DNA of 64,000 bases. Origin: Escherichia virus TH47. The notes beneath the pieces were generated by a model. The model did no database searches, was not told where the DNA came from, and was given only the letters and a program-made list of their open reading frames with translations. The translations under genes were made by a program, and so were the position numbers. Of this stretch, positions 3,755-63,663 are shown piece after piece (position 1 is the stretch's first letter; every line of letters begins with the position of its first letter). The stretch is taken from the sequence record MT446416.1. One strand, written 5' to 3'.

Positions 3755-3770
3755 ATTCTTTTTCCTTTAA

Positions 3771-4358
3771 TTACCAGTCTAATGTACCAGTTTGTGTTGG
3801 ATTTCCAGTACTGACTGGGAAAGATGAACCTTTTTGTGTTGTACTTGGTCTGTATGTATTGAATCGTGATACGCGTTCAATGTTGATAGCAGTAATACCA
3901 GAAGTTCCAACGGTAATAGTCCCGATGAACATTATAATCTGTGATTCTTGTAATTGTGAAGTTGAGATTCTATAAATTGGCTCACCCAGTACTAAAGTAG
4001 CGTATACATATTGTGTTTGTGTTCCTGATGCCACTGTTGGTGCTGTCACTGCAACAACAGGGTAATTATAAAGATAGCCTCCGATGAATGCAGGTATCTC
4101 TCGGTTAAAACGTAATGAATAACCGCTTGATGTAATTGACAAACTAGATACATCATAAAGTTCACCATATTGTGATAATGGTAAACCGTTAACAATAGAA
4201 TCAACTTCATCTTTTGTTAAGAGGGGGAATGTACATTCCCCATTTGCGTCTGTTCGATACGATACGTCATTAATATCACTAATAGATAGTCCAGTGTTTT
4301 TATTCTGGACTACGATTTGTGACATAGCTTCGATATCGGATCTTATAATATATGCCAT
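3771..4358 (-). CDS. short tail-fibre paralog (195 aa; N-terminal motif plus shared C-terminal module only)
   Basis: C-terminus RFNTYRPSTTQKGSSFPVSTGNPTQTGTLDW aligns with the C-termini of both large neighbours; 16-nt gap to the next gene with an AAAGGA Shine-Dalgarno. Confidence 0.55.
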   Translation of the reverse strand: MAYIIRSDIEAMSQIVVQNKNTGLSISDINDVSYRTDANGECTFPLLTKDEVDSIVNGLPLSQYGELYDVSSLSITSSGYSLRFNREIPAFIGGYLYNYPVVAVTAPTVASGTQTQYVYATLVLGEPIYRISTSQLQESQIIMFIGTITVGTSGITAINIERVSRFNTYRPSTTQKGSSFPVSTGNPTQTGTLDW

Positions 4359-4370
4359 AAGATTAATCCT

Positions 4371-7067
4371 TTACCAATTGATTGTTCCTGTTTGTGACGG
4401 TAGACCATAACTAACTGGGAATGAAGAACCAGCAGCTTCAAGCGACGCACCGAAAATATCCAATCTTGAACGTTTTTGTATGTTAACATTTGATATTTGT
4501 AGTGAGTTTGTTTGTATAGTACCTATCCAGAAAATATTATATGCTGTAGTACCAGTCTCTGAAATAACATCAGTTGTTATTACATATTTTGCATTACCTT
4601 GTTCCATTTTAACATATACATGAAATAATGTGTTTGCCGGATTAGCCTTAACTGTAGTTAAGTTTATACTAGTAATAGGTAATGTAAATGCTTTACCAGA
4701 AAGAATTACTGGAGTTTCTTCTGTGAAGTACACAATAAAACCTTGAGCAACGTCTTGTGAAACTACGTTAATCGGTGCACCTTGAGCAGTCCAGTTATTA
4801 TAATCAGCAATTGTAGTACCACATTTTTGGAAAGTCATTTTGTTTACATAGTCTATTGCTTGGAAATAACCAAAACCAATACCAGGTAAAGCTGCTGGTT
4901 GAATACCTTGCTCATAACTTGCATGTGAACCACTGATAATAAAACTATCAAATTGTGCAGTTGCTTTTGTTACATATGCTCTGAATTGGTGTGTGTTTGT
5001 ATTACCAATAGTTGGGTGAGATAATGGGTCAGAACCACCTATGAAGTAGAAAGAACCACCATCATATATTGTTAAACCAACAGAAGACGATGCAAAACTA
5101 CCATTACCATTTGGTGTAAAGTTACTTCCGTAAACGTTTTCTAGTACTAAACGCTTGAAGGTAATTGTAGTGATATTACCTGAACGTGTATTCACATTCA
5201 CTTCAGCAATTCTAATATAGTTCTGATATGTATTTGTAACTGTACTTAGCATTACGAATGCAGGTATATCAGTTTGTTGTGGAACAAACAATGTCATATC
5301 TTTATAAGCAGCAGGAGATAAGTTCCAGTCGCTTAGTACTTTAGCGTATTCAGCATTTCTGAAATTATCAAGTACTGATTGAGTAACACTAATGATACCA
5401 GTTCCGTTCATATTTTTATCATATGATAGTGATTGGGAATATCTCTGACCTACCATGAATATCCCACCATTTGTAGTAACATTATTACCACTAATGGAAC
5501 TAATAAAAACTCTGTTGTTAGTGTTATCTGTCACATTAGCACGTTCTGTTGTTGGCTCATAACCTTGTATGGTTCCACGTGATAAAGAATTAAACGTAAA
5601 GTTAGGAGTACTTTTATGAACTGCATAAGATGGACGGAATGCACCAGAACCAGTTGAACGAGAATACTGTTTAGTACTGTTCCCTGGAAGCAATTCTACT
5701 CCGTTAATAAAAGAACCAACTGCTGAACCAAATGAAGGACGGACTATACCATTTCTGAAATCAGTTGAAATGTTCGCACGTACATTGATCATGCTATATA
5801 TTGATTGCGAAGTAAATTTAGCTTTCTGCATAAGTAATGGTTCTGCTAAGTTTGGACATGCAGTACAGAATACATCACCTGTATTCAGATAATAATATGA
5901 ACTGTAAATATTTCTTGCACCGTTATGGTCATATAACGGATCTTTGTTGAGAACATTACCAGTAGCAACCAATGCCGAACCTGTGTTTGTGACAACCAAT
6001 GGTGCAGCAAATGTACCAATATCGTTCCCAGTATCCAAGTTACATTGTTTAGTACTCATGTTAAAATTGAAACTATAACTATGCTGTGGTCGGGTATTGT
6101 AGTTTGCCATAGTGAACCATGCGTCACCATTCATTCTGAATCGGAAGTTCTGCGTTCCTGGCTCCTGAGCAACATATAAATCGATAGATGTCATATAAAT
6201 CCCCATACCAGCCAAATTTTGTGGTACATAGACATAGGGCTTATCAGCTATATTAGTTGAGTTAACATGGTCAGTAATGATTATATTATTCTGAGAAGTA
6301 TATGTAGTATTGTAAAAAGTTTTTGTTGTCCACCCCGTGATTCGGGTAGCAGTATAAGTACCGTTTGCAATATTCAACACAACACGAACAACAACAATCT
6401 GTAGTTTGTTATTTTCATTAAGGACGTTGAATACATAAACTGAACCGTCTTCTGCCATCATAGCATACTCAATCCCACCTTCAGGTGAAATATCAGCTTG
6501 GTTCACAAAAAGACCACTATGTTGTGTATCATCCAATGTACCATTCGTTACTGATATAAACAACCCATTAGTACTGGTAGATGTGTCATTGTAACGACCT
6601 AACAGTATTTTTGAATCGGTATTGTATAAACCAATAGCAACACGGTTTGCCCCGAAATAGCCAGGCTTATACTGACGGCTTGTATTAACAGTACGACTCA
6701 TATCGGTAACTGATAATGCGTTCGCTAGGTAAGAATAAAACAAACCTTCAACACTACCGTTTGTACCACTACGTAATAGTACTAATGTGCCATCGTTTTC
6801 TAAAAGTATTTTGTTTCTACGTTGGGATTGGTTTTCTGATGCACCATTAAAATCACCAGATACCCCAGCAGGTAGATAGTTATGTGTACCATAATGCGAG
6901 ATTGGAAGTAAACTAATTACATCAAGTAATTCTTCTTTGGAATATGTATCAATTTCCATATTACCATTAGCATCAAATACTTGATCATTGATGCCCTGTA
7001 CTGTTCTTTTCCCTTTAACTGTCACATTATGAGTGACGTCTAAGCCACCATATATTTTCTTTGACAT
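4371..7067 (-). CDS. tail-fibre-like structural protein (paralog 1, 898 aa)
   Basis: Same N-terminal and C-terminal modules as 1025-3754; AAGGGA Shine-Dalgarno upstream of the ATG. Confidence 0.6.
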   Translation of the reverse strand: MSKKIYGGLDVTHNVTVKGKRTVQGINDQVFDANGNMEIDTYSKEELLDVISLLPISHYGTHNYLPAGVSGDFNGASENQSQRRNKILLENDGTLVLLRSGTNGSVEGLFYSYLANALSVTDMSRTVNTSRQYKPGYFGANRVAIGLYNTDSKILLGRYNDTSTSTNGLFISVTNGTLDDTQHSGLFVNQADISPEGGIEYAMMAEDGSVYVFNVLNENNKLQIVVVRVVLNIANGTYTATRITGWTTKTFYNTTYTSQNNIIITDHVNSTNIADKPYVYVPQNLAGMGIYMTSIDLYVAQEPGTQNFRFRMNGDAWFTMANYNTRPQHSYSFNFNMSTKQCNLDTGNDIGTFAAPLVVTNTGSALVATGNVLNKDPLYDHNGARNIYSSYYYLNTGDVFCTACPNLAEPLLMQKAKFTSQSIYSMINVRANISTDFRNGIVRPSFGSAVGSFINGVELLPGNSTKQYSRSTGSGAFRPSYAVHKSTPNFTFNSLSRGTIQGYEPTTERANVTDNTNNRVFISSISGNNVTTNGGIFMVGQRYSQSLSYDKNMNGTGIISVTQSVLDNFRNAEYAKVLSDWNLSPAAYKDMTLFVPQQTDIPAFVMLSTVTNTYQNYIRIAEVNVNTRSGNITTITFKRLVLENVYGSNFTPNGNGSFASSSVGLTIYDGGSFYFIGGSDPLSHPTIGNTNTHQFRAYVTKATAQFDSFIISGSHASYEQGIQPAALPGIGFGYFQAIDYVNKMTFQKCGTTIADYNNWTAQGAPINVVSQDVAQGFIVYFTEETPVILSGKAFTLPITSINLTTVKANPANTLFHVYVKMEQGNAKYVITTDVISETGTTAYNIFWIGTIQTNSLQISNVNIQKRSRLDIFGASLEAAGSSFPVSYGLPSQTGTINW

Positions 7068-26933: not shown

Positions 26934-27224
26934 TTATTCTTTCCCCTCGTCAGTACTGATGAATTTTTTATCTGAGAATGTGCCATGTTCTTGACGCATA
27001 GCTTCTGCGTGTTGAACTGCGTTAATTGGATTAATGTTCTTTTTAATAAGAACTTCTTGCATTAGTTCGAGAACAATAGAAAAACCATTGAGTACTCGCT
27101 CTGCCTCGTCAACACCTTTCAATTCAATAGCCACTGCACTAATCTGATCTAATGCGGTATTTATAAACTCTGAATCATCTAACACATCATTGACTTCAGT
27201 ATTATTACGTACAAGAACTTTCAT
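26934..27224 (-). CDS. hypothetical protein
   Basis: Start moved to the ATG at 27222-27224 (MKVLVRNN...) with GGAG 5 nt upstream; the track start is TTG. Confidence 0.45.
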   Translation of the reverse strand: MKVLVRNNTEVNDVLDDSEFINTALDQISAVAIELKGVDEAERVLNGFSIVLELMQEVLIKKNINPINAVQHAEAMRQEHGTFSDKKFISTDEGKE

Positions 27225-33978: not shown

Positions 33979-34557
33979 TTATAAAAATGTTAAATCTTCA
34001 GTACTTAATTGTGATAATTTGCCATCATATTCAACTTCAACATATATTGTTTGGTCTGAAATTATAACTACTCTTCTAATAACACCATAAACCACGACAT
34101 TTTTGTTGTAATGGAATTTAACCTCTGCACCAATAAGTTTTTTTGATAGGAAGTTACGTACCTGTTTGATCTGGTCGGCAAGTATAGAATTGATGGTTTT
34201 TTTCATAATATATAAATCATACAATGATTTTTTAATATCATCATGCATATTATTAACTTTTGGATCAGTTTCATCAAGTGCATTGTGAACATTCACTTGC
34301 ATTTGAACTTCAACTTTAAGTTCTTCTTGTTCTTCAGGAATAACTTTTTCAGGTTCTGGTGTAACCTGATCACGTTTATCATTAATCATGAAGTTGATAT
34401 TACGTTCACCAAGTACTAATAAAGTAACAATGGTGAGTACTGGGGTCAGTACTAGACTAAGTAGTACATAGCCGATAACACTACGGTTGTAATTGTAGGC
34501 AAGCATACCTGCAATGACTACACCTAGTACACTAATAACTGCTGCGATTGTTAACAT
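33979..34557 (-). CDS. membrane-anchored protein
   Basis: Two N-terminal hydrophobic helices followed by a charged region. Confidence 0.5.
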   Translation of the reverse strand: MLTIAAVISVLGVVIAGMLAYNYNRSVIGYVLLSLVLTPVLTIVTLLVLGERNINFMINDKRDQVTPEPEKVIPEEQEELKVEVQMQVNVHNALDETDPKVNNMHDDIKKSLYDLYIMKKTINSILADQIKQVRNFLSKKLIGAEVKFHYNKNVVVYGVIRRVVIISDQTIYVEVEYDGKLSQLSTEDLTFL

Positions 34558-35224: not shown

Positions 35225-35530
35225 TTAATATATAATCTCACTAGCTTCTGTTGTGTAAATGCCATTATCAGTCATTACCCTTACTGCAATCTTTATGTTT
35301 TTACCCATTTTGGCAACTATCAAACCAATGATAATACCATCCATCTCAAACTTATTATTTCCAGCAGGATATCTAACTTTAATTTTAATTTTATTATCAA
35401 TCAAGTATCTACGGATGATGTGGATTTCTGTTCTGAATAAATCCAAAAGAACTTCGCTCTGTTCCTTATCAGAACCATCAGCACAGCTATACAATAAATT
35501 TACTTGTTCAAATAATTTTTTTATATTCAT
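35225..35530 (-). CDS. hypothetical protein
   Basis: 101-aa ORF. Confidence 0.45.
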   Translation of the reverse strand: MNIKKLFEQVNLLYSCADGSDKEQSEVLLDLFRTEIHIIRRYLIDNKIKIKVRYPAGNNKFEMDGIIIGLIVAKMGKNIKIAVRVMTDNGIYTTEASEIIY

Positions 35531-35829
35531 AAAAAACTCACAGATTTAATATTACTAGTTGTATGTTTAAACACAGTATTATCAAACTTGTAAACAATAG
35601 TATTAAGAGATTTATAAAAATTAACATCAGTTATTACTGCTTTGGAACCATTGATTAAACACGATGATGACGGTAATTTATTTTCTAATATATTCTTTTC
35701 ATCTGAACAAAGTGTTCCAATACAATCATAATATAAAGGTTCACCAACTTTATCAGTACTAAGAAAATCGAAAGCAAGATCATCTATTAGTTTTATGTAT
35801 TTGAATAAATCTTGATAGTACTCATTCAT
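35527..35829 (-). CDS. hypothetical protein
   Basis: Start moved to the ATG at 35827-35829 with AGAGGA Shine-Dalgarno. Confidence 0.45.
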   Translation of the reverse strand: MNEYYQDLFKYIKLIDDLAFDFLSTDKVGEPLYYDCIGTLCSDEKNILENKLPSSSCLINGSKAVITDVNFYKSLNTIVYKFDNTVFKHTTSNIKSVSFL

Positions 35830-36326: not shown

Positions 36327-37067
36327 TCATTCTCTCCACTTTTGACCACGTTGCCAATCTGGATCATTCAAACGTGGGTCATTTTCATTTTGTGTATTAG
36401 TAACTTTACCACTTTTATGAACTAACCAAATTCGTTTTGACGCGACCGAAGAATATTTTTGTTTTTGAACATCAGTTCTCTTTTTACCAGTGTTTGATTT
36501 CTTTATATTGTTGGACCATGATGTTTTTTCTTCATCTGTCATTTTATATGTACAGGGTTTACCATGCATAGGATTTTTATCTCCAGGGAAACAACCTTTC
36601 ATCCTCTGACTCATTTGAATACGTGTTTCTTCTGATACAGATTTACCTTTATTCCAAGCCACAACACCTGAAGAATATCGCTTCTTTTGTGCCGTTGATA
36701 TTTGTTTTTTCCAATTTTCTTTATCAATTACGCCGTAGCCACCTTCTCCACCACGTTTGATGTTATATGTGTCGCTTCTTTGTATAAATTGTTCATTAAC
36801 AATTTCTCTTTCTTTGTTATACATTTCTTCTTTATTATCAAAAATATAAAGTATTTCTTTATTGAATTTTTCAATTCCATATTTCTTAATGGATTTCTTT
36901 ATCAGAACACCTGAACCCATATATTCATCATTTATGTCATCAGTCATATGAGCACCAATATAAATTTTATTATTAATTAAATTGGTTATTTTATATATAA
37001 TATAATAGTGCATATAGAAAGTCCTTTTTGTCATATATGCACTATTTATTTTATCAAAAACGTCCAA
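36327..37067 (-). CDS. free-standing GIY-YIG homing endonuclease (Seg-like)
   Basis: YYIIYKITNLINNKIYIGAH...YMGSG GIY-YIG motif; repeated basic DNA-binding-like modules in the C-terminal half; contains no AGTACT. Confidence 0.7.
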   Translation of the reverse strand: MDVFDKINSAYMTKRTFYMHYYIIYKITNLINNKIYIGAHMTDDINDEYMGSGVLIKKSIKKYGIEKFNKEILYIFDNKEEMYNKEREIVNEQFIQRSDTYNIKRGGEGGYGVIDKENWKKQISTAQKKRYSSGVVAWNKGKSVSEETRIQMSQRMKGCFPGDKNPMHGKPCTYKMTDEEKTSWSNNIKKSNTGKKRTDVQKQKYSSVASKRIWLVHKSGKVTNTQNENDPRLNDPDWQRGQKWRE

Positions 37068-39951: not shown

Positions 39952-40256
39952 TTTATTACCTCTATATCTACATCTGTGCCATAGTAGGAAACGTAACCAT
40001 TATCTGACTTACATTGAATTGATAACTCTGATTCATAGTATGTTACTTTGATCACTGTTAGTACTTTTTCTTCAATTTCTCCCGTTAAATAATCCATTTC
40101 ACGAACACGAACGTTGGTTCCTTTTGGGAGTTCTTGTGCAATTTTATTAACAAGTTCAAAAGCAGCTTCTTCAAGTGTGTGCAACAATTGCAATCTATCT
40201 TGGATATTCATATTATTTCCACCAAGTTGTATCTCGACCACCAGACAAAGATTCAT
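39948..40256 (-). CDS. hypothetical protein
   Basis: 102-aa ORF. Confidence 0.5.
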   Translation of the reverse strand: MNLCLVVEIQLGGNNMNIQDRLQLLHTLEEAAFELVNKIAQELPKGTNVRVREMDYLTGEIEEKVLTVIKVTYYESELSIQCKSDNGYVSYYGTDVDIEVIK

Positions 40257-40902
40257 TGTACTGATGCCTGAAATTAGTATTTGGATTATTTGTCATTGTA
40301 CTAATAAAATCAAATTTAACATTCTCTTGAATGTAATTAATAACATTATCTTTAAATTTAATAGTACTGAAGTCTAAATCTAAATGTTCATACAATACCG
40401 GATGACAAAACTCATGTGTACGCAATGATGGCATGGTATCCTTAATGTATTGCACAGTGTTAATCATTGCATTATATTCAGGCATAGCACGCATCATCAT
40501 TAGCTGAAAGTGTTCTTCCTCTGACATTGATTCATCCAAATCAATAACGACTTCATCATTTTTAGAGTCAAATACTTTAATGTCACTCTTTGTTGGATCA
40601 AGCATAGCCCACTCTGGATACAGGCATGTTTTCCAAAAAGGATTATTGCACTGAAACATACTAATGAGATTTTGATCTTTATCAAAAATAGCAAATCCAA
40701 GATCCGAACTTGGCTGTACTTCACATACACAAATATCGTAAGGAGATTCTTCAGTACTGAATGATCCAACTACATTTGATATATGTGAATATGGAGTTTC
40801 TCTTGATTTTAATTCAAAGGCTCTCTCCATACGATTAACCTGTGGTTGTAATGTAATTACACCCCTCAGTACATATAAAATTCTATCTAAATCTTTAATC
40901 AA
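40213..40902 (-). CDS. FQ-motif family member (dispersed copy)
   Basis: SEEEHFQLMMM motif. Confidence 0.5.
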   Translation of the reverse strand: MIKDLDRILYVLRGVITLQPQVNRMERAFELKSRETPYSHISNVVGSFSTEESPYDICVCEVQPSSDLGFAIFDKDQNLISMFQCNNPFWKTCLYPEWAMLDPTKSDIKVFDSKNDEVVIDLDESMSEEEHFQLMMMRAMPEYNAMINTVQYIKDTMPSLRTHEFCHPVLYEHLDLDFSTIKFKDNVINYIQENVKFDFISTMTNNPNTNFRHQYNESLSGGRDTTWWK

Positions 40903-42879: not shown

Positions 42880-43812
42880 TCATATTTTTAATTTATTTTC
42901 GAGTAAACATTTACATACATAATCAATAACAAGATTTATGTCTTGTAAATCAAATGTTTCAGTATACCCATCACCAAAATAATCCTTTGGCAATTTACTA
43001 CTATTTTTAAGCAGATTTAAAATATTATATTCTACACTTTTAATAACTTCGGTATTTCCAGTAAAATAATATAATTCCTCTACTATAAAATTAGTTTTTG
43101 ACCTAATACTAATTAGTCTTGATTTATCAATCTTTGTAGAAATACCAACTTTATATTTTATTAAAATATTTTGTTCATATATTCCTAAAATATATAATTT
43201 ACTTTCTTCTGGGATTGGTCTGATACAATTGCAGTTAAGAGATCCACATTTAACTCTACTATAATTAATATATTTGTCAAAATTACACGCTGTACAATAA
43301 AATCTAACCTTATATTGTGTACCACGGTATGTAGATTTATCCATATATATTGTATTTGAGTAATCTTTTATTTTATTCATAATAGTGTTATATGCTTCGT
43401 CGATATCTAACGGCATACAATATGATGAATGACATTTACAATATGAACCTCTAGACTTAACATCATGCACCGTCATATATCTTTCAAACGCACAATCGTC
43501 ACAATAAAATCTAGATTTGTTTTTTGTAGTTGTGAATGTGGAAATATCTAATTTTAATTTTGAATTAATTTCACCCAATTTATTATATAAAGTTTTAAAT
43601 GTGGGACAGTGACAAAATATTCCATTTTTGTACACATTCCTAACTATGATATTTTTACTAAACCCACATTCATCACAGAAAAAAGTTGATTTGTTTGATA
43701 TGGTAGTGTATGTTGTTCTATCCATTTTTACCGATGAACCAATTGAACTCAATTTTTCATCAACCAGTCTGAATACTTCAGAATCTGGCTTTTTACTTGG
43801 CACTTTACACAC
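42880..43812 (-). CDS. zinc-ribbon-repeat protein with C-terminal T5orf172-like (GIY-YIG-related) domain; putative homing-endonuclease-like nuclease
   Basis: Three F-x-C-x-x-C ... C-x-C repeats; C-terminus LYILGIY...KYKVGISTKIDKSRL...EYNILNLL...GDGYTETFDL resembles the T5orf172 domain; contains no AGTACT. Confidence 0.5.
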   Translation of the reverse strand: MCKVPSKKPDSEVFRLVDEKLSSIGSSVKMDRTTYTTISNKSTFFCDECGFSKNIIVRNVYKNGIFCHCPTFKTLYNKLGEINSKLKLDISTFTTTKNKSRFYCDDCAFERYMTVHDVKSRGSYCKCHSSYCMPLDIDEAYNTIMNKIKDYSNTIYMDKSTYRGTQYKVRFYCTACNFDKYINYSRVKCGSLNCNCIRPIPEESKLYILGIYEQNILIKYKVGISTKIDKSRLISIRSKTNFIVEELYYFTGNTEVIKSVEYNILNLLKNSSKLPKDYFGDGYTETFDLQDINLVIDYVCKCLLENKLKI

Positions 43813-43852: not shown

Positions 43853-44164
43853 CTACTTGAGCCATTGTCCCGCTTTGTAACAATAAAGATTCTCAAATTT
43901 AAAGTTCTCTATATCACATTCCTCACGTACTCGATTCTTGTTCCAGAATAAAATACGAATCCTTTCATAATCACGATAAACACTAATAATGCTTCTGTGT
44001 TTAGATTTATAATATTCTTTTACAATATCAAGATACATTGACCTAAGTAACGATTTCACTGGATAAGACAAATCCTGTGCCGTAGTAATAAAGTAAATCA
44101 TCTTCATTGTTTCAGCAATAAGAACTTCATTTGTTGTATTTGTCATTGTAATCCTTACATACAC
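43853..44164 (-). CDS. hypothetical protein
   Basis: 103-aa ORF. Confidence 0.45.
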   Translation of the reverse strand: MYVRITMTNTTNEVLIAETMKMIYFITTAQDLSYPVKSLLRSMYLDIVKEYYKSKHRSIISVYRDYERIRILFWNKNRVREECDIENFKFENLYCYKAGQWLK

Positions 44165-44309
44165 TATGTAAAGTAAATCCTAAACCAACACCAACAATTG
44201 GGAATAGTAAATTAACATACCATGTGTTCATTGTTAAAAAGGAATAAGCACCTGAAGCTGTCAGTACTGCAATAGAAAAAAGACTCCAGATAAAAAATAA
44301 TGCTCTCAT
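44127..44309 (-). CDS. small membrane protein
   Basis: 60-aa hydrophobic ORF. Confidence 0.35.
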   Translation of the reverse strand: MRALFFIWSLFSIAVLTASGAYSFLTMNTWYVNLLFPIVGVGLGFTLHSVCKDYNDKYNK

Positions 44310-44596
44310 AAAAATGTTACCTCGTTAGATGAGTAGTTACGATATATTTGTGAATTATGTTCCACACCATGAATTGTTATATGCCCGTTGTAGAAAAAAG
44401 TAATATCTACAACTTTGAGTTCTTTACGTTTTTTAGTACTGAAATATCTACCCACTAACGCAGCATATATATAATCCCTGTACTCTTGAGTAATGAATTT
44501 ATACATATTATGATTTGCACTACACTTTTCATCATAAGTATTAGTATATTCTTTCATCAGTAGAGCATATGTTTTTTGTATTAATATGATATTCAT
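44306..44596 (-). CDS. hypothetical protein
   Basis: 96-aa ORF. Confidence 0.45.
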   Translation of the reverse strand: MNIILIQKTYALLMKEYTNTYDEKCSANHNMYKFITQEYRDYIYAALVGRYFSTKKRKELKVVDITFFYNGHITIHGVEHNSQIYRNYSSNEVTFL

Positions 44597-44793
44597 CTGT
44601 AGTTTAATATTGAAATGGGAAGACTATATATATGTGCGTAAAGTTTATCAACTCTTTCCATATTCACTTTTAAAGTACTTCCAATACGACTGATGCTATC
44701 TATACGATAAAGCACGTCATTCAGCATCATTACGGTATCGGTGTAATCTTCACTAAGAGATTCAATGTAGATATCTTCAAGTTTCACATCCAT
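44593..44793 (-). CDS. hypothetical protein (start uncertain)
   Basis: The track ORF begins at a GTG at 44979 and would overlap the zinc-ribbon ORF; shortened to the internal ATG at 44793. Confidence 0.3.
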   Translation of the reverse strand: MDVKLEDIYIESLSEDYTDTVMMLNDVLYRIDSISRIGSTLKVNMERVDKLYAHIYSLPISILNYR

Positions 44794-44848
44794 GCGTGGT
44801 ATATCTAAATCCCTCAATAAACGCAGTGTTTGCACGATCAGTTCAGCT

Positions 44849-45049
44849 TTAGTAATGAATACGCTCACATGCCAGACAATAAATGCACTCAATGTCAGGT
44901 CGCCATGATTTATCGAAATCTTTGTGCTGTTCTTCAGTGTATTCCGCATCATCATTGATAGGAAAGAAATCCCCAGCACCAGAGGCCCAGTCTGAATCTA
45001 AACGGAAACGAGCTAATTGAGTACTGTTGCAATATGGACATTTATTCAA
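44849..45049 (-). CDS. small zinc-ribbon protein (TTG start)
   Basis: CPYC...CIYCLAC; no in-frame ATG, but the TTG has AAGGA 7 nt upstream. Confidence 0.35.
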   Translation of the reverse strand: MNKCPYCNSTQLARFRLDSDWASGAGDFFPINDDAEYTEEQHKDFDKSWRPDIECIYCLACERIHY

Positions 45050-45326
45050 AATTTATTCCTTCTAACTGATATACGTTTAATGAAAATGACCCACTATTAT
45101 TATCGCATCTGAAACACAGTGTTAAAGAACCATTATAACTCACGACATCCGTACATATACATTTTTCACCATTGGATATGATAGATTTTCCTATATATAA
45201 ATCTCTTACTATAGTACGGTAATGTTGCCATAAAAAATAATACACACTTTCATAGTACTCATCTTTTACATATGACAAGTATAAGAATTTATAAAATACT
45301 TGTATTTCCTTTAAGTTGTTTTTCAT
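45042..45326 (-). CDS. member 5 of a five-gene tandem paralog family (shared N-terminal M-x-N-x-x-IQFTYK-x-LY motif)
   Basis: MKNNLKEIQVFYKFLYLSY. Confidence 0.5.
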   Translation of the reverse strand: MKNNLKEIQVFYKFLYLSYVKDEYYESVYYFLWQHYRTIVRDLYIGKSIISNGEKCICTDVVSYNGSLTLCFRCDNNSGSFSLNVYQLEGINFE

Positions 45327-45600
45327 TCTCCAACTCCAGTAAATTTACACCAATCCAATCAACATCACTATCAGTACTTAATTCCAATCGTAGCTTACCG
45401 CTATGACTAACAATATCGCGGAATTTGTATATTTTATTATCACGAACTATACACAAATCATGGTAATATTCATGTAATTCATCCAAAAACTTTATCCATA
45501 CCGAACGATAGATTTCACCGTAGAGATATTCTCCAGCATCAACCGTAGCGTATTGGATATACAAAAATTTGTATGTGAATTGTATATCATTAATATTCAT
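45289..45600 (-). CDS. member 4 of the five-gene tandem paralog family
   Basis: MNINDIQFTYKFLYIQY. Confidence 0.5.
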   Translation of the reverse strand: MNINDIQFTYKFLYIQYATVDAGEYLYGEIYRSVWIKFLDELHEYYHDLCIVRDNKIYKFRDIVSHSGKLRLELSTDSDVDWIGVNLLELENEKQLKGNTSIL

Positions 45601-45610
45601 ATGTCAACTC

Positions 45611-45922
45611 TTATAGGTCCGTTAACTTCAAAACTTTGATCTCCATAAATTCCCTATCAGTTTTTTCAAGAAATTCTACATGGATAATACCTTGATAAGA
45701 TTTTACACCTGAATATTCAAATATGTCATCTCCATCAGTGTAAGTACTGTAATTCTTTTTTATATATTCAGCAATAGAATCTAAGTAATCATAGTAATTA
45801 TTAATAAATGGTGATTCTTTTGATTCGACATGTTCACCAATCTTCCCACTAAAAAGATACATGTCATACAAACCATATATATTTTTATACGTGAATTGAA
45901 CATCATTCAAATTTAATTTCAA
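45611..45922 (-). CDS. member 3 of the five-gene tandem paralog family
   Basis: MKLNLNDVQFTYKNIYGLY. Confidence 0.5.
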   Translation of the reverse strand: MKLNLNDVQFTYKNIYGLYDMYLFSGKIGEHVESKESPFINNYYDYLDSIAEYIKKNYSTYTDGDDIFEYSGVKSYQGIIHVEFLEKTDREFMEIKVLKLTDL

Positions 45923-46179
45923 GGGAATATCTCCAGAGGAACACTCGTAAATCCAAAATCAGTGTAGAACTGTACCTCTACTTTACCATCGAGCTTAATG
46001 ATTATATCTGAAAATTCTGCATGATCGTTGTTGATAATTACAGTACTGAATTTTTCTTTAATCCTCTCACGCACAGTATTAATCATTTCAATACATGTAT
46101 TTTCTAAAAATATACTATTATTTTTATCTGCTAGGTCACGAATGCACTTGAATGTTAATTGGAAATCTTTATAATTCAT
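45919..46179 (-). CDS. member 2 of the five-gene tandem paralog family
   Basis: MNYKDFQLTFKCIRDL. Confidence 0.5.
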   Translation of the reverse strand: MNYKDFQLTFKCIRDLADKNNSIFLENTCIEMINTVRERIKEKFSTVIINNDHAEFSDIIIKLDGKVEVQFYTDFGFTSVPLEIFP

Positions 46180-46445
46180 ATATTCACCAAATCAACAGAG
46201 AATAAGTCGTTATCAAATTTATATGAAAGTACTAATCTACCATCAAAACTATCGACACTAAGTATCTTTCGTTTTTTCCCATTAATGAAAATTTCAGTAT
46301 CAATAAAATACTCACGTAATTCTTCTAGGTAATTTGACCATAATTTATGAGTAAACGCATATTTATTAATTGTGTTAGTACTTCTGTGATTATGGTGTAA
46401 TTTAAATAATTCCATATAAGTGAATTGTATATGTTTGTAATTCAT
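46176..46445 (-). CDS. member 1 of the five-gene tandem paralog family
   Basis: MNYKHIQFTYMELFKL. Confidence 0.5.
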   Translation of the reverse strand: MNYKHIQFTYMELFKLHHNHRSTNTINKYAFTHKLWSNYLEELREYFIDTEIFINGKKRKILSVDSFDGRLVLSYKFDNDLFSVDLVNI

Positions 46446-46454
46446 ATTTCCCCT

Positions 46455-46484
46455 TACAAAAATAGCCCGAACTTATGTCGGGCT
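46455..46484 (-). terminator. rho-independent terminator
   Basis: AGCCCGA...TCGGGCT hairpin followed on the minus strand by ATTTTTGT. Confidence 0.5.
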
Positions 46485-46491
46485 ATATGTG

Positions 46492-47109
46492 TTATTCATC
46501 GTCATCATCATCGTCGTCGAGATCTAGGTAAATGCCATCATCACCATCATCGAAGTACTCAACCACTACACCAGGAATGTTCAGTGCTGTGAACATCGCA
46601 TCATATTTTTCATCAGATGGGATAAGAACAAACTCATCAATACTTTGAATTTCAGGCATACGATCTTCAGGAATACCCATTTGCAACAAGGATTGGATGA
46701 TTTTTTCCTTGTATTCTAGGAACTTCTCTTCTGATTCGAAATCCATAATAAGTTGTGCTACATAACCATCTTCGTTACCAAATGCGATTGACATTTGTGC
46801 ATCAGTACCGACATATGACCATGTACGCTTGCCAGTATTTTTCTCAATGAAGTTCTGAATTTCAAGAACGATTTCATGACGAGAACTATTGGCAATGTTG
46901 TTAAGGTTAGCAACACCAGCAATAATTTCTGAACTATCATTGGATTCTTCGAATGTACCATAGTCACCTAATACATATTGAACACCATCACAATGTAATG
47001 CATATGCATAATCCAAATCAGCAAGTGAATCACACTTACCACGGATTGGGCGTAGGGAAAGCCCTAGGCGAAGATAACGAAAGTATGTATTAGTATTTGT
47101 ATTTGTCAA
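46492..47109 (-). CDS. hypothetical protein with poly-Asp/Glu C-terminal tail
   Basis: C-terminus ...YFDDGDDGIYLDLDDDDDDDE; start taken as the TTG at 47107-47109 with AAGGAG 7 nt upstream; the first in-frame ATG is far downstream. Confidence 0.4.
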   Translation of the reverse strand: MTNTNTNTYFRYLRLGLSLRPIRGKCDSLADLDYAYALHCDGVQYVLGDYGTFEESNDSSEIIAGVANLNNIANSSRHEIVLEIQNFIEKNTGKRTWSYVGTDAQMSIAFGNEDGYVAQLIMDFESEEKFLEYKEKIIQSLLQMGIPEDRMPEIQSIDEFVLIPSDEKYDAMFTALNIPGVVVEYFDDGDDGIYLDLDDDDDDDE

Positions 47110-47377
47110 CGTAATGCTCCTTAACAATATAAAAGTAGTTGCTGTTGTTGTCAAAAAAGATGACTAATCCTTTGTAGACATTTACACCAATCTTGATTTG
47201 GCATATTTTATTCGATTTACAAGCCTCAGTCAATAACATCTTGTGCTCTTTACTGAAAGTGTGGAATAGTGGTTTTACATGCCACATCTCCACACCATCT
47301 AGTACTGGAAAATGTTCACTGAATTTGATCATTGATTCTTGTAAAAAATAACCTGTTAGATTCGAATCATCAGACAT
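47090..47377 (-). CDS. hypothetical protein
   Basis: Start moved to the first ATG (47375-47377); the track start is TTG. Confidence 0.4.
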   Translation of the reverse strand: MSDDSNLTGYFLQESMIKFSEHFPVLDGVEMWHVKPLFHTFSKEHKMLLTEACKSNKICQIKIGVNVYKGLVIFFDNNSNYFYIVKEHYVDKYKY

Positions 47378-47663
47378 GTAAGTTCGCCAGGAAGTCAATT
47401 ACTTCTTCATGTGTTAACTTATCACTACGCTCTAGAACATTGATGATGAATGGTGTTTGACTATATAATTCAGCCAGAAACGCAACTTCATCAGATGTAT
47501 AAGAATATCCCATAGGAACAACTTGTGCAGTCCAGTTTCCTAAAGTTTTGTTTGCAATGATTGCAACCACCGTATTACCTTTGAATTCAACATGGATTGA
47601 ACGGAAACCCGAATCCTCATTCTGATCCCAAAGTACTGGGTTAGTTTTAAACAGTACTGACAT
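47370..47663 (-). CDS. hypothetical protein
   Basis: 97-aa ORF. Confidence 0.45.
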   Translation of the reverse strand: MSVLFKTNPVLWDQNEDSGFRSIHVEFKGNTVVAIIANKTLGNWTAQVVPMGYSYTSDEVAFLAELYSQTPFIINVLERSDKLTHEEVIDFLANLHV

Positions 47664-47665
47664 AG

Positions 47666-48199
47666 TTATTTCCTCATGTATTTTATTACATCTTCAAATA
47701 GTTTAGTTTTCAGTGCATCATCATTACCAGGTAGAAAAGTACTGAAGCTATTAAAATCTTCATTCTTGGCAAACTCACGCATCTGTGTGGAACTGTAGCG
47801 ACTTACATTTCGGTCAATTCCAGCTTGAACTGCCTTGATTGAACAAAAATTATATAACTTCCCATTGTACGTGTCAAGCGTTTTTTGGAATGGTTCAAGT
47901 CTGTCTGAACCACATATGAAAAGAACATCTAAGTACTTTCCATCCAGTTCTCTCATTATATCAAACAGATTATCTTCTGTATAGATATTTTCTTGTACAG
48001 ATGGGTAAAATCCTTCTGTATAGTACATTTTCAGTTCAGGAGGTAATGGGTTTTTGACGGCATCAGTACTGGTACTAAGGAATATTTTCAAATCAGCATT
48101 GTACTGTTCTTGTAGTGCTTGGGCTTTTTCAAACACTAAACCATGTCCATTGTGGACTGGGTTACATCTCATGAATGTCACTACGCATGTTTCTTTCAT
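47666..48199 (-). CDS. HxGH-motif nucleotidyltransferase (cytidylyltransferase-like fold; possible NMN/NaMN adenylyltransferase)
   Basis: FMRCNPVHNGH near the N-terminus matches the (H/T)xGH signature; downstream SSTQMR resembles the ISSTxxR motif. Confidence 0.5.
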   Translation of the reverse strand: MKETCVVTFMRCNPVHNGHGLVFEKAQALQEQYNADLKIFLSTSTDAVKNPLPPELKMYYTEGFYPSVQENIYTEDNLFDIMRELDGKYLDVLFICGSDRLEPFQKTLDTYNGKLYNFCSIKAVQAGIDRNVSRYSSTQMREFAKNEDFNSFSTFLPGNDDALKTKLFEDVIKYMRK

Positions 48200-56377: not shown

Positions 56378-56969
56378 CTGGAACCACCATCTCTTGTATG
56401 TTCTTGCATTTTTTCATTGCACAATTAGTATTTAAAATGATAGAGTACTTATGTAATGATTTAATTTTATAACACTCATTAAGTACTGAAATGATGCCCC
56501 ATAACTCTTCTACATCAATAGTGATAGGTTCACTAGTACTAAGTTGCATTAGTGCTGCTTCCACATCATCTTTGTTATTGATTTTGAACTGTATGCCACG
56601 TTTCAGTATTTTGGTTTTTGGATTATACTCTGCCATTACATCACCTTCAGGGTAACCCTCGTGTAATAATAATGTTGTCTCATAATCTCCACAATTGAAA
56701 TTAATTTCATCATAGTCAGGAACACAAATCATTCCTTCACCATATTGATTATCTACTGATTCGATTGTTAAAATACGCTGATGTTCATTACTCAGGATAA
56801 TAGAATCGTGCCAGTACTGCGTAGTGAATTTACTACGTTTCTTTTGACAGCACATACTTGACATGGGGCCATACTTTTTATATAGGGACTTCTTGAATGC
56901 TATCGCACCAGGAGCCACCTTAATAACTTCTCGAATTAGGTCAATAGCTTCTTGATAACTTTTTCTCAT
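56367..56969 (-). CDS. FQ-motif family member (variant)
   Basis: EAALMQLST; start moved to the ATG at 56967-56969 (ATGA overlap with the upstream stop). Confidence 0.45.
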   Translation of the reverse strand: MRKSYQEAIDLIREVIKVAPGAIAFKKSLYKKYGPMSSMCCQKKRSKFTTQYWHDSIILSNEHQRILTIESVDNQYGEGMICVPDYDEINFNCGDYETTLLLHEGYPEGDVMAEYNPKTKILKRGIQFKINNKDDVEAALMQLSTSEPITIDVEELWGIISVLNECYKIKSLHKYSIILNTNCAMKKCKNIQEMVVPDEL

Positions 56970-57517
56970 TTGTCGTACCCATATAAAATATGATCTAGTG
57001 TGCATTGTACTTCTTCATGGAAGAACAACGGGTAAATTTGTATCAATTTTTCTTTAAGTTCAAGTGAATGACATAGTTCCAGTGATTTAATACAATCTTC
57101 GTATTGAACTAAGCTATGTAATGTACTTAACTGAAAATGTTGTTCTTCAGAGTAAGCTAAATCATATACCAAATTATCATTTAATAGATTTGATTTAGTT
57201 GAAGGATCAAGTACTGTGTTGCTATGACCTACCCAGAAAAAAGCATTGGTGTTCATATTATTACAACCCCAACCTGTCCCCATTTTCTGGTGAATAGCAA
57301 AGACACAACTATCATAGAGATTAATACCAAGACGTTCTTCGTTGACATAAATCGTAACACCATCGATTGTCATGGTTATTTGGAAACGCATTGAACCTTC
57401 ACTTCGTGAACGTGCACAGAAGCCAAGATAACGGTTAATAATTGTATTGATTTTATCTGCCCATCCTTCCACATCTTTGGATGCACATAATTTAAAAAGA
57501 TCATGACTTTGGTTCAT
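56966..57517 (-). CDS. FQ-motif family member
   Basis: EEQHFQLST. Confidence 0.55.
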   Translation of the reverse strand: MNQSHDLFKLCASKDVEGWADKINTIINRYLGFCARSRSEGSMRFQITMTIDGVTIYVNEERLGINLYDSCVFAIHQKMGTGWGCNNMNTNAFFWVGHSNTVLDPSTKSNLLNDNLVYDLAYSEEQHFQLSTLHSLVQYEDCIKSLELCHSLELKEKLIQIYPLFFHEEVQCTLDHILYGYDK

Positions 57518-57528
57518 GTAGTTCTCCG

Positions 57529-58110
57529 TTAATCAAGCATAAGTGGCATCATCGCCCATATCTTTTTCATAATCATATCTTCAGTAAAAACAAACGTTTT
57601 AGGTGCAGTATATGATATTGACAACCCAAATGGAAGTACGATTGCATCATCAATTATATTATGAATATCAAACCATGTTTTTACACAATCATATGGTGGA
57701 AGTTCATGTATTGTACTTAACTGAAAGTATTGTTCTTCGCCAAAAGTACTGCAATCAATATCACAAATTTTAGTGAAATGATGATTCCATTTAGATATAA
57801 TACTGTTTTTATTATTGGACATATTAGTTCTATGCATGAAACCATTTCTGCTAATATAATTTGATATTGCGTTTTCTTCAATATCATTGCTTATTTTAAA
57901 ATTCATGTAAAAGTTGTAGTACACACTCGACGATTCTTTGAATTTTAAATGAAAATAACGATTGTTATTAATTTCCATTTCAATACAAAACACATCTGAA
58001 TCAAAACGATTAAACTTGTAATCGTTGTCTTCAGGTAGAGTCTGTAATTTTTTCATAACACCAAGCATAGGGTGCACTAAGCTTCTAATAAAATCATTAG
58101 TTATTTTCAT
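57529..58110 (-). CDS. FQ-motif family member
   Basis: EEQYFQLST. Confidence 0.55.
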   Translation of the reverse strand: MKITNDFIRSLVHPMLGVMKKLQTLPEDNDYKFNRFDSDVFCIEMEINNNRYFHLKFKESSSVYYNFYMNFKISNDIEENAISNYISRNGFMHRTNMSNNKNSIISKWNHHFTKICDIDCSTFGEEQYFQLSTIHELPPYDCVKTWFDIHNIIDDAIVLPFGLSISYTAPKTFVFTEDMIMKKIWAMMPLMLD

Positions 58111-60827: not shown

Positions 60828-61346
60828 TTATTTTGGTAAAACGCGGTCAAGGTACGCTAGATCCTCATCTTGGAGGTACGTTCCATCTATTGTTATGTAA
60901 TAGTTCTTAGGGATATCACAACCTATCTTCTCGTAAATTTGCATACATGATATCACATCTTCATCACAAATGGTACTCAATTGAAACAGTACTTCATCAG
61001 TTAGCGGCACAATATCATGTTTAGATATGGGGTTGGTATTTTCATTCAAAACAACATCAAACAAACTGGGAGTATTCTTTGACGAAATGTAACGATGCTT
61101 ACTACGAATTACCATTCTCGATAGTGAAATACTGGAACTCCATCTTGGGTCCACATCTTCGTATGATAGCGAAACTAACATTTCATAATAATCTTGGAAT
61201 TTCATTGATGCATAATATGTTTTTTCCTCACCGTACATTCCAAATGATTTGAATTCAATGTCACCTACATTGTGTGTATCACTCGCACTATTCACGAAAT
61301 TTAACAGACTGTTGATTAGTCTGATTAGAATATCATCTTTATTCAT
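60828..61346 (-). CDS. FQ-motif family member
   Basis: DEVLFQLST; start moved to the ATG at 61344-61346 (track start is TTG). Confidence 0.5.
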   Translation of the reverse strand: MNKDDILIRLINSLLNFVNSASDTHNVGDIEFKSFGMYGEEKTYYASMKFQDYYEMLVSLSYEDVDPRWSSSISLSRMVIRSKHRYISSKNTPSLFDVVLNENTNPISKHDIVPLTDEVLFQLSTICDEDVISCMQIYEKIGCDIPKNYYITIDGTYLQDEDLAYLDRVLPK

Positions 61347-61896
61347 TATCAGATAACTCCCTGTGCATGTCGTATAAATCTCGAAAGTCCTGATAGAAAT
61401 CTTTTTCTTCAAGAATATCTTTTAAACTAGGAATCTCAACCATAATCTCATCGATATCAGTTTCAATAGTAAAACCTGATTTATAATTTTGTAAGAGATA
61501 ACTAAAAGCAACAAGATAAAGAATTTCATTTGGTTTATGAATTAACATGTGTTGGAACATAACTGATTCTAAATCAGATTCAGTACTAAGGTCAGCATAA
61601 CATGTATCGTTGGTGTCAATTCGTACTTTACTTGAATTTGGATTCCATGTAAAGCAATGTGTTCCAACTGTTCCCAAACATCCTACTCTTGTACTATCAT
61701 TTGTTCCCAAAAAGATATCAAAATACGTTTCATCTGTATAATCGTATTTTTGTACTTTACCTTTTTTAAGGCATAAATCATTATCCTTTCGAAAAGTTTT
61801 AGATGATAGTGTATCAATGATGCACATTAATGTTTTTGCAAATGCAATACAATGACGTAATTCAAGTCTATGGAAATTATAATTAGTAAAATTCAT
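61339..61896 (-). CDS. FQ-motif family member (variant)
   Basis: ESVMFQHML. Confidence 0.5.
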   Translation of the reverse strand: MNFTNYNFHRLELRHCIAFAKTLMCIIDTLSSKTFRKDNDLCLKKGKVQKYDYTDETYFDIFLGTNDSTRVGCLGTVGTHCFTWNPNSSKVRIDTNDTCYADLSTESDLESVMFQHMLIHKPNEILYLVAFSYLLQNYKSGFTIETDIDEIMVEIPSLKDILEEKDFYQDFRDLYDMHRELSDNE

Positions 61897-62913: not shown

Positions 62914-63314
62914 ACTTTACCAGGGAAGTGTTTCTCGTAGAACTCATCATCACTTAACATATAATCAGGTGTTTCTACTTCTATGGGTTTGTAGAATGTT
63001 TCTGGGATGTGTGTAATTTTATTTGGTTGTACTTTATGTTCGCGTAAAACCTTCTGTATAGCTCCTAGGCGTTGTAAATCAATACAGGTGGGCAGAACTA
63101 AGCTGTACTGAAATAGCTCGTCAGGGGTCATTATAGACACATCCTTAGCTTGTTTGATTTTATTGTTGGTATCAATGAATATATCAAATCCAAGTACTGC
63201 ATTATAGCTTACATAGGTTGTTTTGTTTTTGTCAATAGCTGCACTTAAACTATATCCATATATTCCGTATCGGTCAACCATGCATCGTTGCATAATTTTA
63301 ATCATTTCGAACAT
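62901..63314 (-). CDS. FQ-motif family member
   Basis: PDELFQYS. Confidence 0.55.
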   Translation of the reverse strand: MFEMIKIMQRCMVDRYGIYGYSLSAAIDKNKTTYVSYNAVLGFDIFIDTNNKIKQAKDVSIMTPDELFQYSLVLPTCIDLQRLGAIQKVLREHKVQPNKITHIPETFYKPIEVETPDYMLSDDEFYEKHFPGKVWRD

Positions 63315-63663
63315 AATTTACCTCGTATGTGTTATAATTCCACGCTTTAACACTATCCATTTGTATATCCTGAACTTCATGGAAATATTTAAGTACCTTC
63401 TGGTATTCCATTAGTTCGTACACATCTTCAGTACTGACAGTACTCTCCTGAAACAATTCCTCTTCTGATAAAGTACTATAATCAGGGATTTTTATTTCAG
63501 AATATATCTCATTTATATATGAATCATTTTGGTAAATCTGTAGATAAAACTGATTATATTCAGGGATATAGGTTACGAAATGGTTCTCGTTGAATTCATA
63601 TCTTGAAGCAAAGTATTCATTGCCATCCGTCATGTACTGAATTGTTGTAGTATTATTATGCAT
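63298..63663 (-). CDS. FQ-motif family member
   Basis: EEELFQEST. Confidence 0.55.
   Translation of the reverse strand: MHNNTTTIQYMTDGNEYFASRYEFNENHFVTYIPEYNQFYLQIYQNDSYINEIYSEIKIPDYSTLSEEELFQESTVSTEDVYELMEYQKVLKYFHEVQDIQMDSVKAWNYNTYEVNYVRND

Follow-up and report, generated by a model that had tools for sequence, protein, structure and literature searches.

Escherichia virus TH47 (sequence record MT446416.1) carries a tandem array of five small genes on the minus strand at positions 45042-46445 of the 64,000-nucleotide stretch analysed here, referred to below as the window. The first-pass annotation, which was made from the sequence alone, had described five consecutive genes of 86-103 amino acids (aa) in this interval, and all five open reading frames (ORFs) are present as listed. 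The first of them, g1 (46445-46176, 89 aa, ATG start, MNYKHIQFTYMELF), is preceded by an AAGGGG Shine-Dalgarno sequence that lies directly after an upstream hairpin. It is followed by g2 (46179-45919, 86 aa, ATG, MNYKDFQLTFKCI), the most divergent member of the array, g3 (45922-45611, 103 aa, TTG start, MKLNLNDVQFTYKNIY), g4 (45600-45289, 103 aa, ATG, MNINDIQFTYKFLY) and, in the last position, g5 (45326-45042, 94 aa, ATG, MKNNLKEIQVFYKFLY). The overlapping start and stop codons that had been ascribed to the whole array are found at two junctions only, each with an overlap of 4 nucleotides (nt): at g1/g2 (ATGA) the g2 ATG lies on the g1 stop codon, and at g2/g3 (TTGA) the g3 TTG lies on the g2 stop codon. 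In contrast, g3 and g4 are separated by a 10-nt gap, and g4 and g5 overlap by 38 nt, since the C-terminal tail of g4 (~13 aa) runs that far into the start of g5.

The terminator that had been placed after the array lies in fact before it. The terminator-like hairpin with its T-run (46486-46462, minus strand, stem GCCCGAC...GTCGGGC) is situated upstream of g1, between the stop codon of a 204/220-aa acidic-tail gene and the g1 Shine-Dalgarno sequence, and ends the preceding operon. Its stem and T-run are retained in phages 121Q, A4 and Turkey5, in which the loops differ, and the record of phage G17 marks it as a terminator. Nothing terminator-like was found 3' of g5, the next minus-strand site of this kind being at 41825-41806; what meets the end of g5 instead, with an overlap of 8 nt, is a Zn-ribbon gene (44849-45049, minus strand, 66 aa, CxxC...CxxC), which closes the variable slot occupied by the array. 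The Zn-ribbon gene is by far the most conserved gene in its stretch, with 73% nucleotide identity to Klebsiella phages RaK2 and K64-1 and conservation also in Muenster and others. Its product has no Pfam match, is labelled 'transcription factor IIS-like' in the K64-1 record (an annotation made by another group) and is not a member of the array family, the hhalign probability to the family being 0.2%. In all the relatives examined, the gene has members of the family on its upstream side and, as a rule, on its downstream side as well.

The five genes were shown to be full-length paralogs. Pairwise blastp comparisons among them (in a database of 358 ORFs) give alignments of 84-100 residues with E-values from 6e-7 to 5e-4, so that the similarity is by no means limited to the first ~15 residues, which had been named as the observation that would speak against the family. 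When each member in turn was omitted from a profile hidden Markov model (HMM) of the others, the omitted member was always the best match (g1 4.6e-12, g4 8.8e-11, g5 4.9e-8, g3 1.5e-6 and g2 4.4e-5). After removal of the first 20 residues four of the five were still top (g1 3e-9, g4 8e-7, g5 9e-6, g2 9e-4), with g3 marginal at E 0.017 and rank second. The profile of a single PHROG cluster, phrog_21004, recognizes all five, with E 3e-35 for g3 and 3e-44 for g4 and cross-matches to g1, g2 and g5 at 1e-5 to 7e-5 (5.6e-5 for g2), while g1 matches phrog_32291 at E 7e-27 and g2 matches its own family, phrog_35943, at E 1e-44. The proposal of a lineage-specific paralog family is thus upheld by profile similarity over the full length, by the predicted fold that g1 and g4 share and by the scarcity of relatives, 18 matches among 1.84 billion cluster representatives.

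The array ORFs are retained in more than 30 phage records, and the pooled ratio of nonsynonymous to synonymous substitution rates (dN/dS) is below 1 in every comparison with enough substitutions (against six relatives); the genes are real and under purifying selection. Since the five proteins are only 18-33% identical pairwise and each is kept as an ortholog across clades, the duplications are old and do not represent a recent expansion. It was also considered whether the conserved N-terminal motif could have arisen at the RNA level or by gene conversion, and this was ruled out: wobble bases differ among the paralogs (ACT/ACG/ACA, TAT/TAC), hence the motif is conserved at the level of protein.

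On profile evidence, the family comprises at least seven members in the window, that is the five array genes and two dispersed ones. The sixth (44306-44596, minus strand, 96 aa, MNIILIQKTYALLMKEY) joins the family on HMM iteration, and its 121Q and A4 orthologs match the HMM of the A4 alignment, which lacks them, at E 4e-5. A 96-aa slurp01 protein, returned as a structural match from BFVD (14% identity; template modelling (TM) score 0.63/0.67), may be an ortholog of this gene. The seventh (35527-35829, minus strand, 100 aa, MNEYYQDLFKYIKLIDDL) is located ~9 kb downstream and has its own PHROG, phrog_28558, which together with phrog_28826 holds the dispersed members. It is recognized by the HMM of the five array genes alone at E 7.5e-5 and ranked second in three of the leave-one-out searches. 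Two further minus-strand ORFs are probable remote members as judged from profile comparisons. One, 44593-44856, lies directly after the Zn-ribbon gene and reaches an hhalign probability of 73% (E 3e-5, 45 columns), and its orthologs in 121Q, A4 and the relative L004 match the family profile at E 2e-4 to 4e-4. The other, 35225-35530, adjoins the seventh member and resembles the family in its N-terminal half only (hhalign probability 72% over 49 columns; iterated HMM E 1.7e-11 for residues 1-51). The start codon of 44593-44856 (44854-44856) is ATT in the window phage (...CATTACTAA), in contrast to ATG in all seven relatives checked (...CATGACTAA), and the same change converts the last residue of the Zn-ribbon protein from D to Y; the gene would either use a rare ATT start or a GTG located 24 nt downstream, or else its translation is impaired. 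The idea that one superfamily of ~90-100-aa genes ending in 'Y-x-G-K-x-V ... V-x-F-L' fills the region up to the RNA ligase and polynucleotide kinase genes found no support, since in hhalign comparisons of ortholog-group alignments against the family only 44593-44856 and 35225-35530 are supported and the others score 13% or less. A 192-aa ORF at 33979-34557 (minus strand) has a hydrophobic N-terminal segment like a membrane anchor and ~70 C-terminal residues with a family-like 'L-x-G-x-x-V ... strands ... DLTFL' arrangement; it may be a membrane-anchored relative of the family, for which the profiles give no support.

An exhaustive HMMER search recovered 18 proteins at E<=1e-3, nearly all of them from this phage group, and as far as sequence searches reach the family is confined to Asteriusvirus-type jumbo coliphages and their closest relatives. 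The contigs that gave database hits all belong to this group, and two further word-index searches brought in no other lineage. A match of the beta part of the profile to P0044, a 237-aa secreted repeat protein (E 2.5e-5), was judged unrelated and attributed to compositional or beta-hairpin resemblance. The annotation is 'hypothetical protein' in every record, and no description of the family or of Asteriusvirus paralog arrays was found in the literature. The public records are not consistent in their annotation: those of WPEC5 and Ecwhy_1 (L009 4260-4511 and L010 4263-4514) start g3 at an internal ATG, which gives 83 aa and loses the family N-terminal motif, and g5 is unannotated in phAPEC6 and UE-S1 (L008 and L012, around the g5 position) and shortened to 78 aa in 121Q.

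The g1 protein was modelled by AlphaFold2 with a predicted local distance difference test (pLDDT) score of 94.9 and a predicted TM score of 0.82. The model consists of a helical hairpin (residues 3-22 and 26-47) and four antiparallel strands (51-54, 57-67, 70-77 and 80-85), and the g4 model (pLDDT 81) has the same H-H-E-E-E-E order of elements. In the predicted fold, a hairpin of two N-terminal helices packs against a beta-meander of four antiparallel strands, and the whole would form a soluble single domain of ~90 residues. A Foldseek search of BFVD returns other family members at 14-29% identity and TM scores of 0.6-0.77. Family-wide conservation falls on N2 and D5, on F8/Y10/L13/Y14/Y17 of helix 1, on L35/W36/Y39/L40/I43/F47 of helix 2 and on the S66-Y67-x-G69 turn. 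In the models the MN-x-x-D-x-Q-F-T-Y-K-x-L-Y start looks like the N-cap and core face of helix 1. It was asked whether this motif might be a shared docking site, which is unsupported: N2 and D5 fit an N-capping box and F8/Y10/L13/Y14/Y17 fit the core face of helix 1, so that a structural role is the simpler reading.

Searches against characterised proteins gave little. In the Protein Data Bank (PDB) there is neither a sequence-profile match nor a fold match that spans both the helical and the sheet layer. No Pfam-A match reaches the gathering threshold for any of the 26 family members, and no Pfam family recurs in more than one of them; Cdc13_OB2 for g2 (E 0.002) and Phage_Gene33 for the 44306 member (E 0.008) are sub-threshold and neither recurs. 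Against PADLOC-DB only scattered single-member matches were obtained, the best at E 6e-4, with none recurring. The proteins are soluble and lack long hydrophobic stretches, as judged by eye. The isoelectric points (pI) of g1-g5 are 8.0, 4.8, 4.7, 4.9 and 5.8 and that of the 44306 member is 9.0, with net charges from -7 to +3. Given this pI range of 4.7-9, a shared nucleic-acid-binding or DNA-mimic role is unlikely, and the DNA-mimic anti-restriction type (Ocr, Arn, ArdA) was rejected, since it needs strong acidity throughout the family.

The phage that carries the window is of the Asteriusvirus type, i.e., a 121Q/PBECO4-like jumbo coliphage. Over 44000-47500 it shares 95-97% identity with the Escherichia phages WPEC5, vB_Ec-M-J, Turkey3 and others, and ~83% with 121Q, PBECO4 and phAPEC6, all of them Asteriusvirus-type jumbo myoviruses of 350-380 kb. 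In the array region the G+C content is 30-37% and nearly all genes lie on the minus strand, in a block that also encodes Dam methylase, an HxGH nucleotidyltransferase, RNA ligase and polynucleotide kinase. The order of genes, namely Dam, HxGH nucleotidyltransferase, two small genes, the acidic-tail protein (~205 aa), the variable slot, the Zn-ribbon gene, more small genes, RNA ligase and PseT, is kept from the window phage as far as Klebsiella phage RaK2. For the RnlA/PseT pair a role against the Prr system was proposed by the authors who described phAPEC6 (PMC7247149). The array stands near genes, Dam and RnlA/PseT, with known or proposed counter-defence roles.

Within this conserved frame the array occupies a slot of hypervariable content. 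The interval that separates the acidic-tail gene from the Zn-ribbon gene contains five genes in the window phage, in 121Q and in A4, three in Turkey5, two ORFs in RaK2 (just one of them a weak family match) and a single gene in the metagenomic relative L002; in L002 and L003 more family members occur downstream of the Zn-ribbon gene. In RaK2, ORF453, ORF456 and ORF461 match the family weakly (E 4e-5 to 8e-4 in a small database). Positions 1-4 of the A4 slot are only 30-41% identical to their window counterparts, and the neighbour-joining tree is star-like. The closeness of individual genes does not follow that of genomes, and versions of a gene that are just 58-64% identical replace one another regardless of the flanks. 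The identity of g4 is 99% in Ecwhy_1 and 98% in 121Q; in WPEC5, whose genome is otherwise the nearest, it falls to 64%, and in ph0011 to 58%, although in 30 of 35 phage records it is 90% or higher. For g1 the relation is reversed (92% identity to WPEC5, 54% to 121Q), and g5 is 95-99% identical in 121Q (99%), A4 and UE-S1 and 60% identical in ph0011. In the comparison with 121Q the synonymous divergence (dS) of the g4-g5 block is 0.01-0.06, whereas in the flanking genes it is ~1-1.5, which argues for a recent transfer between clades. The segment 44849-45600 (L001 6790-7535 in 121Q), with 95-99% identity and dS 0.01-0.3 for g4 and g5 and for part of the Zn-ribbon gene, is a sharply bounded, recently exchanged block within the array. 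The number and versions of the genes differ between related phages through gene-by-gene recombination. The genes also change faster at the protein level, with a pooled dN/dS of 0.27-0.44 in the array as compared to 0.07-0.15 in the flanks, i.e., an approximately threefold excess of replacement changes (Fisher p 6e-11 for 121Q, 4e-13 for ph0011 and 1e-11 for UE-S1). Downstream of its array, ph0011 has a 1485-nt gene (L011 979-2463) with no similar-sized counterpart in the other relatives examined, which is a further sign of the plasticity of the region.

The hairpin lies so close to g1 that no promoter would fit in between; read-through is therefore the simplest way in which the array could be expressed, and it is probable that transcription passes the hairpin in this way and that translation proceeds by coupling. 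Sigma-70-like sites are no commoner than in shuffled sequences (20 versus 26, and 102 versus 104). The T4-type late-promoter motif TATAAATA occurs once in the 64-kb window, both strands taken together (27158-27165, minus strand), as against 11.8 +/- 3.3 occurrences expected from dinucleotide-preserving shuffles, each of which had at least one. This suggests that the motif is avoided in the window and that it is a functional signal in this phage, and the depletion is compatible with a non-late region. The virion proteome of phAPEC6 was established by mass spectrometry and contains 62 proteins (PMC7247149 Table 1). The phAPEC6 orthologs of the array genes, gp386c-389c, and indeed all of gp382c-393c, are absent from that list, which indicates indirectly, by way of a related phage, that the array proteins are non-virion.

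Small binders with a private fold, relaxed or diversifying constraint, changes in copy number and gene-by-gene exchange are features for which a host-interaction locus, most likely one of counter-defence, is the best supported explanation. From these features we infer the function, and with a probability of roughly 45% the locus is regarded as a tandem array of anciently diverged paralogs whose products are non-virion, intracellular small binders of a plastic host-adaptation or counter-defence locus. Within the infected cell the proteins would bind or inhibit host factors stoichiometrically, with defence or stress-response proteins as the most plausible targets, and duplication, divergence and exchange of versions would serve to broaden or retune the range of targets. 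Several points weigh against this interpretation. There is no homology or fold match to any characterised protein. The overall dN/dS is below 1 and so does not demonstrate positive selection, and relaxed constraint would also raise the ratio. Sigma-70-like sites are at the level of shuffles, and expression might be low, given the terminator immediately before the array. In addition, g4 and g5 are more than 95% conserved across most of the group, unlike what a simple arms race would produce for every member, and guilt by association is weak, since most neighbours are also without known function. A bolder form of the same idea, which is conceivable though doubtful, would see here a structurally novel multigene immune-evasion family, in which each paralog or version neutralises a different E. 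coli defence or abortive-infection factor and versions are swapped by recombination, so that the array would be a 'counter-defence cassette' comparable to the multigene families found in large DNA viruses of eukaryotes.

The same small proteins could alternatively be host-takeover or regulatory factors, expressed early and binding RNA polymerase, the nucleoid or the translation or degradation machinery, maybe together with the Zn-ribbon protein. Many small T4 early proteins do bind host machinery, the array proteins are small, soluble and non-virion, and the constant company of the Zn-ribbon gene, which is translationally overlapped with g5, would fit such a role. However, conserved core targets leave unexplained why there are 1-5 copies, why replacements are 30-40% identical and why dN/dS is threefold that of the flanks. 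Moreover, the 'TFIIS-like' label was given by another group, the Zn-ribbon protein has no match in Pfam, and the pI of the family, from 4.7 to 9, speaks against a common nucleic-acid-binding role, so that we consider this explanation unlikely. It is likewise improbable, in our estimation, that the genes are dispensable, weakly constrained ORFan duplicates, i.e., filler of the plastic periphery of the genome that drifts and recombines with no role for each copy. Such genes would be expected to show a dN/dS above that of the flanks and a content that varies between relatives, as is the case here, and a chimeric protein (P0033), a truncated one (P0030), coverage of 71-92% in the SD-1, SD-2 and SD-6 phages, missing annotations and the lack of a known function for the array genes all point the same way. 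Yet with a dN/dS of 0.1-0.4 each gene is still under substantial purifying selection, a shallow alignment was enough for a very confident prediction of the fold, and the order of five genes is kept across the 121Q-type and window-type clades, whose flanks differ by dS >1. Near-identity of g4-g5 between clades (dS 0.01-0.06) also resembles recent transfer or a sweep and not neglect.

The T4 internal-protein locus, which is small, variable and counter-defensive, provides a precedent for regarding the products as strain-variable virion, assembly or packaged internal-protein-like components, but this is very improbable. The 62 virion proteins identified in phAPEC6 by mass spectrometry include none of gp382c-393c, inspection by eye reveals no N-terminal motif for targeting to or cleavage by a prohead protease, and the genes are distant from the structural modules, lying within the nucleic-acid metabolism block.

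The counter-defence interpretation invites comparison with other variable phage loci. Hyperplastic regions of the T4 superfamily were reportedly described by Comeau and co-workers in 2007 as series of small ORFs that are specific to a lineage and flanked by conserved core genes, and they are typically under early-promoter control. The array resembles them in being a packed, one-strand set of small ORFs between conserved genes, with varying content and breakpoints at gene boundaries, but its slot is filled by one paralog family with one fold and not by unrelated ORFans. The architecture recalls that of small two-layer alpha/beta phage inhibitors such as AcrIF1, which is built of two helices on a four-stranded sheet. 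The likeness covers size, the two helices with a four-stranded antiparallel sheet, solubility, the single domain and occurrence at variable phage loci, and it is a resemblance of general architecture only. Gene accordions are known for poxvirus K3L and for the SegB-driven amplification of anti-defence loci in phage T6 (PMC13096335). As in an accordion, small accessory genes stand here in tandem at one locus and their copy number varies between genomes; however, accordion copies are recent and near-identical, whereas those of the array share 18-33% identity and each has persisted as an ortholog across clades. No homing endonuclease adjoins the array either, the nearest GIY-YIG-like ORF being at 36327-37067. 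This ORF (minus strand, 246 aa, with the GIY-YIG-like N-terminus YIIYKITNLINNKIYIGAH...) lies between the two groups of family members, and on its sequence probably encodes a Seg-type homing endonuclease.

The same proteins are already present in PHROGs as phrog_21004, phrog_32291 and phrog_35943, to which they show end-to-end matches at E 1e-27 to 1e-45; these clusters were built from 121Q/PBECO4-type genomes and are labelled 'unknown function'. There the family is split into several unlinked clusters without function, fold or description of the locus, and what is new here is the link between the PHROG clusters, the fold and the behaviour of the variable slot. About 83% of the genes in these 350-kb phages are without an assigned function (PMC7247149), and members of the group are under study as therapeutic agents against pathogenic E. 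coli. The locus is a compact candidate for host-range or counter-defence determinants, with one confident fold that has no PDB match, natural variants in copy number and version and clear recombination boundaries. If the proteins prove to be inhibitors, they would represent a new inhibitor fold, and if not, an ordinary plastic periphery of a large phage genome. The main value of the array is that of a well-delimited experimental target in the poorly understood jumbo coliphages.

Some other genes of the window deserve mention. The HxGH nucleotidyltransferase gene of the conserved block (47666-48199, minus strand) encodes a 177-aa protein with the motif PVHNGHG and no Pfam match at E<=0.01, and its orthologs are labelled cytidylyltransferase, phosphopantetheine adenylyltransferase or, apparently wrongly, 'ribonucleotide reductase A/NrdB'. 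At 42880-43812 (minus strand) a 310-aa protein is encoded, in which three Cys-rich repeats (F-x-C-D-x-C-x-F...C-x-C) are followed by a distinct C-terminal domain; its sole Pfam match is a sub-threshold one to CoiA_N. The array family, which the first-pass annotation had set apart from an FQ-motif family, is distinct from the other blastp paralog groups of the window. These groups, all on the minus strand, are three proteins of ~185-230 aa (40213-40902, 56966-57517 and 57529-58110), three tail-fibre-like proteins with a common N-terminal region (1025-7067) and a pair at 60828-61412 and 63298-63663.

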